A stretch of 63,934 nucleotides of DNA, counting the filler, from an uncultured Methanosarcinales archaeon (GTDB lineage Archaea > Nanobdellota > Nanobdellia > Woesearchaeales > CAZKBD01): NCBI GenBank assembly GCA_964550945.1. It is 13 parts of 13 records of this genome, joined end to end, with 100 filler letters (N's around TTAATTAATTAA, not from the genome) between each part and the next. Parts side by side here need not be neighbours in the genome. Positions count along the whole stretch, not along the records: positions 10,879 to 16,095 come from CAZKBD010000108.1; 12 more parts are not named here. One strand, 5' to 3'. Position 1 is the stretch's first letter, and every line of letters starts with the position of its first letter. The position numbers were made by a program. Positions 12,001 to 15,000 of the stretch are shown piece after piece.

Positions 12001-15000
12001 TGGTGTTGTTCTATTTTTTGTACTTGCTTATTTTACTGTAAAAAGAAAGTGGCCAAAATAATCAACTTCTCCTTCGCTAAAGCTCAGTTGCCCACACTGC
12101 GCTCTCATTCTTGCTCATCCTACACTTCACTAAAAAATTTTACAGCAAACTCACAAAACTGAATGATTGTTTCTTTGTCCAAATCAAATTCTTTCCTATT
12201 TCCAAGATAGTTCATTGATTTTGACGTCACTTTCTTTCCTTCTTTTAATTCTTTATACGTGATGCATTTAATATGATTTTTTGAGACAACAATAAAATAT
12301 GCGTTTTCATAAGGGTAATTAATCAATGATCTATCATTAATGTCAAATTCTCCGCTTTTTCTAAATTTAACCTCTATAAAATACACGTCCTTTCGTATAG
12401 GATGTTGAACTACAAAATCTGGCATTCTTCTTATCGTATCTGCAACCTCACTTTTAACATCTTGAAGAAGTTTTGTAATTGCAGGGACTGTATTTTCCAT
12501 TCCATATCTGAAAACATTATATCCTAAAGATAAAAATAATTCTTCAATTAATGTTTCAGCAATTCTGCCTTTTATCATACCTTCCTTATATCTATTTTCC
12601 TTTTTTGTTAATCCTTCATTAGAATTATTTTGATGCGGTCTACATAAGGGTTTACCAAAATTTTTTAAAGAAAAATCATGCTCAGCTGAAGTAATCTCCT
12701 TCTTACATATTGTACAGTAATAGTCCATATTACCACCCCAGTAAACAATATATCTTAAAAGTTATTTAAATTATACTATTTTGCGTGTGCCCTTACGAAA
12801 TTGAGATCAACCCTAATTATGAGAAACATGTGCTTTTTCTTTTGATAGAGAAACAGCTGATATTTGTGTTGGAGCTACTCTTGCACGTAATGCAGCATCA
12901 ATTCCCAAGTTCCAGCAAAATATGCTTCTTATCAGGCACAGAAATATAAAGCTCCTCACCCTTTTTAAGATTAAGGCTTCTCACAACATGGCTGTTAAAA
13001 TAGATGCCTAACCGCTCTTGAGATAATTTGACTATTTTCTGTTTTATCTTCAATGGGGTTTCTCTCAGTTCTTGGACCACTTTTTGAGAAGATAGCGGTT
13101 CAAATTCAAAATAGTCACATGTTGGGCACTGATAACTAACCGCTTTACTTGTAGCCCCATGTACTTTAACCTCTACCTTTTTTAAATTTGAATTACATCT
13201 CGGGCAGTTCATTTTTAATCACCTTGCTTCTTTGCATTAATCACGTACAAAATATGGTTTTTGATCTCAAACAAGATGTAATAGCCATTTTTTTCAATCT
13301 CAAATTTATCGTCTTTCTTTCGTGGATTTTTAGTACTGAATATGATTTCTACAACCTTATCCCAAGGAACATCTTCTTCATGTTCTTCAAGATAATGTTC
13401 GGTCGGTTCTATTTCGGTAAAATAAACCATTATATATCTCCTACTACATTAGTGTAGTATAAACTACTATATAAAACTTTCGTAAAACTCATTTACCCGA
13501 TTAGGTTTAAGCCCCACAATACAGACACCCGTAAGATATAGTCGGCTATACAGAATTGATTAAAAGTAAGGATGTTAAGTCCGTAATGAATCTCCCAAAT
13601 TCAGCCCAGCATAACAACCAAAAAGAATACTAAATAGATTAAAGGCACTGCGATAAATATTGAATACTCTGTCCTTCTATGTACTTTCTCAGCAAGCTCT
13701 GTCTTTTTTAGCTCCACTAATTCCAGAAGTATCACATCAATGATAACTGCAGCAAGAATGACAAAATAAGTGAGAATCATGAATTTATCTGCAATAGTCA
13801 AATAACCAACAGGAGGGATTTGGTTTGAGATTGAGATATGGAACATTACTGCTGCAATAAGGCCTGAAGTTGCCACAGTAAGCCTAGTAGTTATCTTATC
13901 TGGGTCCATTACAAAGCTGAACATCAAGATGAGTATGATAAATATAACCGGCAGGAAGGTTTTCATAAAGGAATTGATTGGTATCCTTGATATATCAACT
14001 GTAAATATATATTGAGAGTATACCTCATCATAGATTTTATAGTTATGTTCTAGGGTTTTTGCTTCCCAACCATCAATATTCCATCCTGCAAAGGCTATTG
14101 AGTCATCAATCCCGCTTTCAGATTCTAGAGGTATGTAAGCAAGCTCATCAACTACCTTTTCTTTATCCTCTATGATGATTTGCATCTTTTGTTTGTCAAA
14201 AGGAAAATTTTTTAAGTCAACTGGGCTGTTGAGGTTTGCCTGAATCCTATAAAATTTCTCAGTTGGAGTGTTGGTTATTTTATCCACGCTTGCAGCCCTG
14301 CCATTCATAAACTCGAAATTTTCAGCCGAGCAATTGCTATTGCATTTCATTGATAAATAAAAATCAGCTGTAAAAGAGCCTGTTGCAACATCAAACTTTC
14401 CAAGATTTAGGATATACAACCCTACTTCAACATCTTCCGGCTTAGCATTTGCTGGAAATGCCAATATCAAAGCAATAATAAGGAGCATTAATATTTTCTT
14501 CATATTTCTAGCAAAAATTAGGCCATATATTTAAAATTTACTTTTTGGAGGCCCAGTAGCCCAGTAGAAATCCTAGGCGCCTGTGCCCCTGTTGATTTAC
14601 CTCCTAATAAGACCTGATAATTATCAAAACAGTCAATAAGCCAATCATAAAAGTCAATAGATGGGAAAAAACCAGCTCAAACAAAGGAACAAAAAAATTA
14701 AAAGCAATTAATGACAAAGCTACAAACAATAAAATACCAATGCCCATTGAGGAGCAGTAGATACCTGCTACTTCTGCAGACGGTTTCTTAATCTTGTAAT
14801 TTTTAAAGGAGTAATGATAGGCAACTGTAAAGCAAACCAATCCAATCACATCGATAAATGCCAGCAGTGTGTCCATTTTAACTAAGCGGCTTATTTTTAA
14901 ACGCGTCAATTGCAAAAAAAGACGCTGATAATGCTAAAAAACCATGTTGTATCACGATTAAAGCGTAAGTCTGCCCTATAAACCCAAAAAGCACGCTGAA

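Follow-up and report, generated by a model that had tools for sequence, protein, structure and literature searches.

Structural work on prokaryotic pLGICs (pentameric ligand-gated ion channels) has used GLIC, ELIC, sTeLIC and DeCLIC, which are all bacterial. According to PMC4795631, there is not one pLGIC from a unicellular organism whose biological role is known. The text of that inventory (Jaiteh et al. 2016) places archaeal members only in Euryarchaeota and Thaumarchaeota, and the initial annotation of the locus described here repeated this. The S1 alignment of the same paper departs from its text: it holds two MCG-6 sequences and A0A0B3AX95 from archaeon GW2011_AR19, a Pacearchaeota genome (PMC8407392). 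This protein is not discussed there but carries the motifs of the family described below, a match that was read by eye.

A compact channel subunit in a DPANN archaeon

The window, the whole stretch of 63,934 nucleotides that was analysed, carries on its minus strand (13601..14503) an intact open reading frame with an ATG start. Its 300-aa product, P0001, was identified from sequence, predicted structure and structure search as a pLGIC subunit with a Cys-less Pro loop, and the gene is present once in this genome. The predicted structure (pLDDT 93.7) matched GluCl (Z 24.5), GLIC (23.8), sTeLIC (23.6) and ELIC (20.4) in VIA, compared to 10 or less for unrelated helical bundles. Foldseek again returned GLIC as the best match (TM 0.83/0.80), and a plain phmmer search of the PDB found GLIC at E 4e-15, far beyond chance. 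On these three lines the earlier description of a full-length GLIC-like subunit stands.

Profile models recognized P0001 only partially. Pfam gave Neur_chan_memb at 8.9e-5 and Neur_chan_LBD at 1.2e-4, and the gathering cut-offs of PF02931 and PF02932 were not reached (22 versus 26 bits and 23.3 versus 28.1 bits, respectively). The family had been described as lying below Pfam's cut-offs, which is true of P0001 but does not amount to uniform invisibility, as the LBD model matched 117/117 family members at E<=0.01 (best 5.1e-9). The NCBIfam models NF033918 LGIC_1 (E 1.2e-20, 74 bits against a cut-off of 500) and TIGR00860 LIC (E 7.4e-16, 58 bits against 280) also gave hits, and by these sequence scores P0001 is outside both subfamilies.

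The superfamily architecture, in which four membrane helices come after an extracellular beta-sandwich domain, was seen in the model and the structure search. All seven residues that Table 1 of PMC4795631 gives as superfamily-conserved are present: F100, P101 and D103 of the [F/Y]PxD Pro loop (F100-P101-F102-D103; 14195..14206, minus strand, placed by alignment), the pre-M1 R173, W141 in beta9, P185 in M1 and P230 between M2 and M3. Among 117 sequences P101, D103, C54 and C58 proved invariant, as first stated, but F100, F102 and W141 are merely nearly so. The cysteine pair that flanks the beta6-beta7 loop in Cys-loop receptors was found in 0/142 core sequences. We regard the assignment of P0001 as a pLGIC subunit as virtually certain.

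Residues 1-20 (14444..14503, minus strand) resemble a Sec-type signal peptide, with a basic start, a hydrophobic core, an A-x-A end, a modelled helix at 2-14 and similar leaders in homologues; the cleavage site was inferred by eye. The beta-sandwich that follows, delimited by alignment, is compact (residues 21-173, 153 aa; 13985..14443, minus strand). From Y30 to R173 it spans 143 residues, compared to 169 in GLIC and 180 in ELIC (F19/R199 in the numbering of PMC3316889). Part of the apical extracellular domain is absent from this branch, and the loop-A WxP motif occurs in 0/142 core sequences. A C54-x3-C58 pair (14330..14344, minus strand) sits where the stretch from beta2 to loop A is deleted, in 142/142 core sequences and 81/135 more distant ones. 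Its position excludes it as the Cys loop. The two residues may form a disulfide; a search of this genome for a VKOR-type oxidase, which did not extend to DsbB, found none. The membrane domain (13604..13984, minus strand) comprises modelled helices 175-198, 201-228, 237-264 and 268-299, with a very short M3-M4 link. The distinctive traits of P0001 are the shortened extracellular domain, the C54-C58 pair, a putative ELIC-like amine pocket of E64, E112 and four aromatics with a loop-B lysine, and the M1-M2 linker. The shortened domain, the pocket and the linker did not figure in the initial annotation.

The gene lies on contig C108 (5217 bp; window 10879-16095), bounded by N spacers on both sides, and whether so short a contig was binned correctly had been raised as a concern. 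Two neighbouring genes are closely related to genes found elsewhere in the phylum, the tetranucleotide distance of the contig is ordinary for the genome (rank 213 of 289 pieces, below the 95th percentile), and relatives of P0001 adjoin archaeal housekeeping genes. These observations largely remove the worry. Together with an archaeal promoter box they led us to reject a misbinned bacterial contig. The TATA-like box, with a purine run upstream of it (14528..14546, minus strand), lies about 33 bases before the ATG; a box at -26 to -40 was found at 13/23 archaeal loci, 0/6 Leptospiraceae loci and 4% of random places. The sequence points to a gene with its own promoter and probably a leaderless transcript.

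Predicted assembly, ligand pocket and pore

When three copies of P0001 were modelled together, a pLGIC-type interface was obtained with a score of 0.54, compared to 0.00 for the best of 3 controls. The mark was reached by 20/30 solved pairs and 1/23 single chains. Contacts agreed between runs by at least 89%, with pLDDT of at least 80, although a pass may show likeness only, similar complexes having already been solved. The model has cross-subunit contacts Y30-Y155 and Y49-Y158 and M2 contacts 209-209 and 216-216. It supports copies that pack side by side, principal against complementary face, with M2 inward, and P0001 is very probably a homopentamer.

The putative ligand site resembles that of ELIC. 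In the published alignment, read by eye, the ELIC pocket residues given in PMC3316889 (F19, Y38, N103, E131, Y175 and F188) correspond to Y30, Y49, F84, E112, Y155 and Y162. Loop B is E112-D113-K114 (14162..14170, minus strand; 141/142 each), in which E112 aligns with ELIC E131 and the loop-B aromatic (ELIC F133), which in ELIC engages in cation-pi contact, is replaced by K114; Lys or Arg is found here in 141/142 core sequences. Loop C carries H153-Y155-Y158-Y162 (14018..14047, minus strand), with ELIC Y175 and F188 as the counterparts of Y155 and Y162. P0001 has the loop A and B glutamates and the loop C, D and G aromatics of an ELIC-type amine site, although the loop A match, E64 with ELIC E77, is our own motif reading in a stretch that the published alignment leaves unaligned. 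At nine positions of the pocket the residue is conserved in 141-142 of the 142 core sequences. In keeping with an amino-acid-like ligand, one of six close Leptospiraceae loci has its channel gene 6 bp after a GltP-like symporter and a fusion of an amino-acid-binding domain to MscS.

The M1-M2 linker (M199-R207; 13883..13909, minus strand, by alignment) has K at -4', T-T at -2'/-1' and R at 0'. It is two residues longer than in GLIC and ELIC; from the M1 proline to 0' there are 22 residues in 142/142 sequences, without a gap against GABA-A alpha1 and GlyR. Alignments and model contacts place 2' T209, 6' S213, 9' I216, 13' M220 and 16' I223 in the pore helix M2, followed by P230 (13814..13885, minus strand). 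The acidic ring of cation channels such as GLIC, ELIC and nAChR is lacking, with a -1' acid in 1/142 and a -2' acid in 0/142; acids sit instead at -5' and -7'. The longer linker, the missing -1' acid and the basic 0' (R in all) are traits of anion channels, but their Pro-Ala is not present (-2' Pro in 4/142, -1' Ala in 1/142). Net charge of the linker is 0 in 142/142, and the extracellular domain averages -11. GlyR is reported to be made cationic by A-1'E alone (PMC2233820). The M1-M2 stretch is not predictive of selectivity in prokaryotes (PMC4795631). Ion preference, which is not readable from sequence, leans anionic at about even odds.

P0001 is likely to work as a gated channel. Our preferred reading, held by a modest balance of judgement, is a stand-alone homopentameric channel, of a compact and hitherto undescribed pLGIC branch, that opens in response to a small amine or amino acid. 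After export, five copies would surround a pore that 9' I/V, 13' M and 16' I/V keep shut. Between subunits a small amine-bearing solute from outside the cell may bind, with E112 and E64 holding the amine and Y155, Y162 (Y158), Y30, Y49 and F84 forming a cage around it. Because K114 and H153 could take an anionic group, an amino-acid-like ligand is our first guess. The D103-R173 salt bridge and the M2-M3 proline would relay binding to the pore and so open it, and the likely job is that of a solute-triggered ion or osmotic valve rather than chemotaxis. That a small organic ligand opens the channel at this particular pocket we likewise predict with slight preference.

Proton gating as in GLIC or sTeLIC, with E64, E112, D113, H153, H222 and H275 as the sensors and a structural or modulatory part for the pocket, seems unlikely. 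In its favour, GLIC is the closest solved sequence and takes second place by fold, with sTeLIC in third; the extracellular domain is acidic, the protein has invariant histidines, and such gating would work without a partner gene, in keeping with the absence of conserved neighbours. Set against this, P0001 shares only about 20% identity with GLIC, and 141-142 of 142 sequences retain the complete aromatic cage and its two glutamates, where proton-gated GLIC has one principal-side aromatic (PMC3316889). Gating or inhibition of a cation-selective channel by a metal (Zn, Ca, Ni or similar) bound by H153, E64, E112, D113 and perhaps C54/C58 is improbable: the pocket lysine suits a cation site poorly, both cysteines are missing in 49/135 distant relatives, and a P-ATPase neighbour is confined to 2/32 loci.

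The bulky invariant Met at 13', the beta-branched 9' in place of the usual Leu, and the missing apical part and WxP motif would suit a pentamer that does not conduct or is constitutively open and that retains the fold for solute binding or scaffolding. The coupling core in its entirety and the pattern of pore-facing residues are nevertheless conserved, with identities above those of several housekeeping neighbours, and we think this reading very unlikely. A receptor for chemotaxis, proposed for bacterial pLGICs in PMC549065, has in its favour one Leptospiraceae copy (L006) that overlaps a Cache/HAMP-type sensor gene. It is hardly credible in this host, whose 92%-complete genome yielded no MCP and no archaellin in searches with positive controls in 8/14 and 4/14 cases. 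Among 8000 candidates of 572-2000 aa that were scored, close fused forms were absent and one match was distant (24% identity), which is weak evidence against such a receptor.

Distribution, relatives and neighbouring genes

The family was found in 24 of 401 genomes of the phylum. The earlier count of 6 in 100 other genomes is thereby borne out (23 of 400 others, in 16 families), as is the presence of pLGICs in DPANN archaea. The homologue search again gave 648 proteins at E<=1e-5; of the 120 listed, 12 were named by taxon, and 12/12 belong to Woesearchaeota, Nanoarchaeia or Nanoarchaeota. The statement that homologues all come from one archaeal group has to be withdrawn, as relatives were found in Leptospiraceae (46-52% identity) and Sutcliffiella (46%) and, further out, in Chloroflexota, Methanoregula and Nitrosocaldus, which rules out a DPANN-only family. 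Named cultured members are Sutcliffiella halmapala (WP_078378476), Paenibacillus cremeus and Methanoregula boonei. Plasmid relatives were 10 distant records only (about 25% identity), feature neighbours in the ESM Atlas were unnamed clusters, a minority with Neur_chan hits, and one of 8 longer representatives is an AAA-like fusion.

Nanobdellota formed one clade in 0/200 bootstrap trees, yet the AU test did not reject it (p 0.13). Monophyly was rejected for host family f16 (p 0.0014) and not for f87 (0.30) or an other-order set (0.23); f12 was already grouped, with weak support. These groups came from taxonomy but were tested after the tree had been seen. Because of long branches, a tree that used plasmid outgroups was discarded; the final tree omits 13 rows, and the trees exclude GLIC, ELIC and the AR19 protein.

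No neighbour family was shared among unrelated archaeal loci in a survey of 32 loci, and no conserved operon or partner gene emerged from it. Shared neighbours occurred at near-identical or closely related loci only, besides chance pairs (the P-ATPase at 2 loci). The neighbours on contig C108 are not tied to the channel: apart from a single nuclease-like gene, met again beside L027, none of the genes next to the channel recurs.

Comparison with described channels

A pLGIC in DPANN archaea alone is a modest extension of range, already latent in published data. The compact branch offers a naturally minimised subunit that shows which extracellular parts are dispensable. Its pocket, conserved almost without exception, provides sharp mutant controls for a ligand screen, a filter of neither textbook type is a direct test of the determinants of charge selectivity, and the cultured bacterial and methanogen members allow functional testing. 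We hold it doubtful, if worth stating, that the branch might be the first prokaryotic anion-selective pLGIC, opened by an amino acid through a novel arrangement of the binding site, with loop-B Lys where the aromatic would be, and the smallest working receptor of the superfamily; it would then be a pre-eukaryotic parallel to GlyR, GABA-A and GluCl that senses host solutes in episymbiotic archaea and was passed to Leptospiraceae and bacilli.

Jaiteh et al. (PMC4795631) name neither DPANN nor a compact branch in their text, but their S1 alignment holds compact Methanoregula boonei proteins beside the AR19 protein, and Nitrosocaldus and Methanoregula proteins were among our wider matches. GLIC from Gloeobacter violaceus (3eam, 6hja) is the best sequence and Foldseek match and shares with P0001 the Cys-less Pro loop, a loop C of equal length and the short M3-M4 link. 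Unlike GLIC, P0001 has an extracellular domain 26 residues shorter, the C54/C58 pair, a full aromatic pocket, and a linker that is longer by two residues, with R at 0' and acids lacking from both -1' and -2'. ELIC, the Dickeya/Erwinia cation channel gated by amines and GABA (3uq4), has six pocket residues with counterparts in P0001, whereas P0001 has Lys for F133, a shorter loop C and a domain 37 residues shorter, and ELIC has E at -1'. GluCl (3rhw) was the top VIA match, tied within 1 Z unit with GLIC and sTeLIC. GluCl, GlyR alpha1 and GABA-A receptors agree with P0001 in the length of M1-M2, in carrying D at -5' and R at 0' and in the missing -1' acid, but differ from it in having Cys-loop cysteines, Pro-Ala at -2'/-1', a long intracellular loop and the loop-D arginine.

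Fold and archaeal origin of P0001

The 300-aa protein P0001 is encoded by an intact ORF (13601-14503, minus strand) on contig C108, which covers positions 10879-16095 of the window between N spacers. Both of its Pfam matches were below the cut-off. A phmmer search of the PDB with P0001 gave E 4e-15 for GLIC and 6e-18 for a GLIC-GABA-A chimera; the family profile matched GLIC at 5e-22. The AlphaFold2 model, made with 117 sequences as input (pLDDT 93.7), is a beta-sandwich followed by four helices, of which M3 and M4 are joined by a very short link. Foldseek ranked GLIC first (TM 0.83/0.80), and in a wide structure search (VIA) GluCl (Z 24.5), GLIC (23.8) and sTeLIC (23.6) tied at the top, with ELIC at Z 20.4 and unrelated folds at 10 or below. 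P0001 has all seven residues listed as conserved across the superfamily in section 7 of PMC4795631 (F100, P101, D103, W141, R173, P185 and P230). The GLIC match, the fold and the seven residues confirm the initial annotation's claim of a full-length pentameric ligand-gated ion channel (pLGIC) subunit, and P0001 is a compact, uncharacterised variant of that superfamily.

Among 277 aligned sequences, the 142 with at least 55% identity to P0001 were defined as the core. The span from Y30 to R173 is 141-146 residues in the core, compared to 169 in GLIC and 180 in ELIC (numbering taken from PMC3316889). By our own reading of the alignment with the GLIC sequence, the stretch from beta2 to loop A is short by about 20 residues and that from loop A to the Pro loop by about 6. 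No core sequence has the loop-A WxP motif (0/142), and Cys-loop cysteines are absent from the core alignment. C54-x3-C58, at either side of the deletion, is present in every core sequence (142/142) and in 81 of the 135 others, and may form a disulfide.

The initial annotation had noted that the placement of C108 relied on binning; the contig and its channel gene are archaeal. The tetranucleotide distance of C108 ranked 213 of 289 among same-size pieces of its own genome, below the 95th percentile. With its own genome counted, relatives of the C108 RHH-nucleotidyltransferase and zinc-ribbon genes were present in 22 and 11 of 101 genomes of the phylum, respectively. Of 23 archaeal loci, 13 had a TATA-like box 26-40 bases upstream of the start, compared with none of 6 Leptospiraceae loci and 4% of random places; this count leaves aside duplicates, distant paralogues and five archaeal loci whose start the script could not place. 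Genes adjoining the channel relatives include some which, from their sequences and without a family scan, we take to be ribosomal-protein, RNA-polymerase and tRNA-synthetase genes.

Range of the compact branch and its gene neighbourhood

The family was present in 24 of 401 Nanobdellota genomes (its own, 18 of the same order and 5 of other orders, in 16 families besides its own), a count that, like the divergent f4 subclade (33-36% identity), rests partly on the unpublished genomes G243 and G396. Three of 61 nearer genomes carried it. Most copies were 57-70% identical to P0001, and channel identity equalled or exceeded that of several housekeeping neighbours (66.7% at locus L015, where an S9-like protein has 56.4%; 65.6% at L014, where a LeuRS-like protein has 57.7%); at L026 it was below the 66.1% of an FtsZ-like neighbour.

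The earlier statement that homologues come from one archaeal group did not hold. Two of seven loci from the genome collection were from Leptospiraceae (49-51% identity), a family in which 11 of 114 genomes matched and six had a full-length copy (46-52%). In a 50%-cluster search, 174 representatives reached E<=1e-30; 30 were looked up, and the seven with a recorded taxon were Sutcliffiella halmapala (46% identity, named 'ligand-gated ion channel' at NCBI), Paenibacillus cremeus, two Woesearchaeota, Nitrosocaldus, Hadarchaeales and Myxococcales. A profile from 82 distant representatives also reached Chloroflexota/SAR202, Limisphaerales and Methanoregula. A family restricted to DPANN is ruled out by the Leptospiraceae, Bacillota, Myxococcales and Chloroflexota/SAR202 relatives. 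The compact branch is densest in Nanobdellota and is not confined there; the observation and superfamily assignment of the initial annotation stand while its taxonomic restriction does not.

A tree of 53 rows placed the sequences from Nanobdellota, Leptospiraceae and Bacillota in one group (100/99), apart from the rest. The AU test did not reject a single Nanobdellota clade (p-AU 0.13), and transfer between archaea and bacteria may have run either way. It did reject host family f16 as one group (p-AU 0.0014), a sign of some lateral movement among these archaea or of hidden paralogy, and it rejected none of three other groupings.

The text of PMC4795631, in the part consulted, names archaeal pLGICs from Euryarchaeota and Thaumarchaeota only, in agreement with the initial annotation. 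Its S1 alignment goes further: it contains compact Methanoregula boonei proteins and A0A0B3AX95 of archaeon GW2011_AR19, which by eye has the family's beta1, CxxxC, loop B, loop C and M1-M2-M2 motifs. Since AR19 is given as a pacearchaeote in PMC8407392 (it is unclassified in the NCBI taxonomy), a DPANN member was already in the published inventory, unremarked. No publication on the compact branch was found in a mostly open-access literature, where a mention in some table could be missed.

No neighbour family was conserved across unrelated channel loci. On C108, a 202-aa zinc-finger and nuclease-like gene (12120-12728, minus strand) has a relative near the channel at L027. A 71-aa gene and, after it, a 104-aa zinc-ribbon/AbrB-like gene (12898-13430, minus strand) look like a toxin-antitoxin pair; neither matched a family above cut-off, and the two stood together at each of the five loci checked in other genomes of the phylum (63-79% identity). 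The RHH-nucleotidyltransferase, a fusion of a ribbon-helix-helix with a nucleotidyltransferase domain (15126-15884, minus strand; paralogue on contig C15), is possibly a sugar-nucleotide-sensing regulator. Elsewhere, a Ca-type P-ATPase adjoins two archaeal channel copies, as isolated cases, and a short, broken second-channel C-terminus (L032, G384:C29:6499-6675) lies about 1 kb from an intact gene. In P0243 (704 aa) an AAA_35 ATPase domain is fused N-terminal to a compact pLGIC.

Among Leptospiraceae, a single channel follows a GltP-like symporter, upstream of which lies a 1160-aa fusion of a branched-chain amino-acid-binding domain, an MscS channel and a cyclic-nucleotide-binding domain (L004:1215-4697); another single channel overlaps a Cache/HAMP-type sensor gene. 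At 3 of 5 loci of distant paralogues (about 30% identity), the channel gene is overlapped downstream by a lipoprotein-like gene of about 158 aa that lacks annotation (L039:2343-2819, L042:2358-2831 and L044:2349-2828), with a second channel gene behind it in L039. These genes had no Pfam match; their product is a candidate accessory subunit.

Predicted assembly, pocket and gating

The three-copy model of P0001 passed the tool's mark with a score of 0.54, against 0.00 for the best of three controls; 20 of 30 solved pairs and 1 of 23 single chains reach that mark. The pass may reflect likeness only, because similar complexes are already solved. Runs agreed in at least 89% of contacts, with pLDDT of at least 80. 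Loops A, B and C and M3 of one copy touched Y30, Y49 and M1 of its neighbour; within M2, residues 209 and 216 met their own counterparts. The model suggests self-association through a pLGIC-type interface. The channel gene is single-copy in its genome, and therefore a homopentamer is expected.

In the alignment of PMC4795631, read by eye between the rows of ELIC and another family member, ELIC F19, Y38, N103 and E131 face Y30, Y49, F84 and E112, and F133, Y175 and F188 face K114, Y155 and Y162. These seven are binding residues of ELIC in the portion of PMC3316889 consulted, where E131 and E77 hold the agonist amine; E64 was paired with E77 by motif only. Nine pocket positions are conserved in 141-142 of 142 core sequences. 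P0001 differs from ELIC in having a lysine for the loop-B aromatic, and it lacks GlyR's loop-D arginine. A ligand may bind at this predicted pocket.

Alongside the fold, coupling core, conservation and stand-alone gene, which are observed, we infer a mechanism in which a pentamer would assemble, a ligand would enter the interface pocket and the pore would open; the ion type and purpose of the channel would follow by the same kind of reasoning. The best-supported reading, held with slight preference, is that a small amine or amino acid opens the channel. Gating by pH is unlikely, gating by a metal more so, and a non-conducting protein is improbable. The least credible role is in chemotaxis, as proposed for pLGICs in PMC549065: neither an MCP nor an archaellin was found in the 92% complete genome, which argues against it.

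Pore and ion preference

The genome encodes two sets of A/V-type ATPase subunits, which makes an ion gradient probable. The A/B subunits lie as two separate pairs at C2:53802-55957 and C32:7636-9799, in an assembly with 2.3% contamination.

The gate residues are V/I at 9', M at 13' (all core), H at 15' and I/V at 16'. Lys is at -4' in 142/142 core sequences, an acid at -1' in one and Pro at -2' in only four; the M1-M2 linker has a net charge of 0 and the extracellular domain one of -11. As described in the relevant parts of PMC2233820, A-1'E turns GlyR cationic and deletion of P-2' weakens its anion selectivity, and PMC9897478 marks known cation-selective pLGICs by acidic rings at the inner mouth. 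According to PMC4795631, the M1-M2 stretch is no predictor of selectivity in prokaryotes. An anion preference is about evenly balanced, and a branch both anion-selective and amino-acid-gated is unlikely. Counted from the M1 Pro to 0', this stretch has 22 residues in 142/142 core sequences and 116/135 others, the same length as in GABA-A alpha1 and GlyR, whereas in GLIC and ELIC it is two residues shorter.
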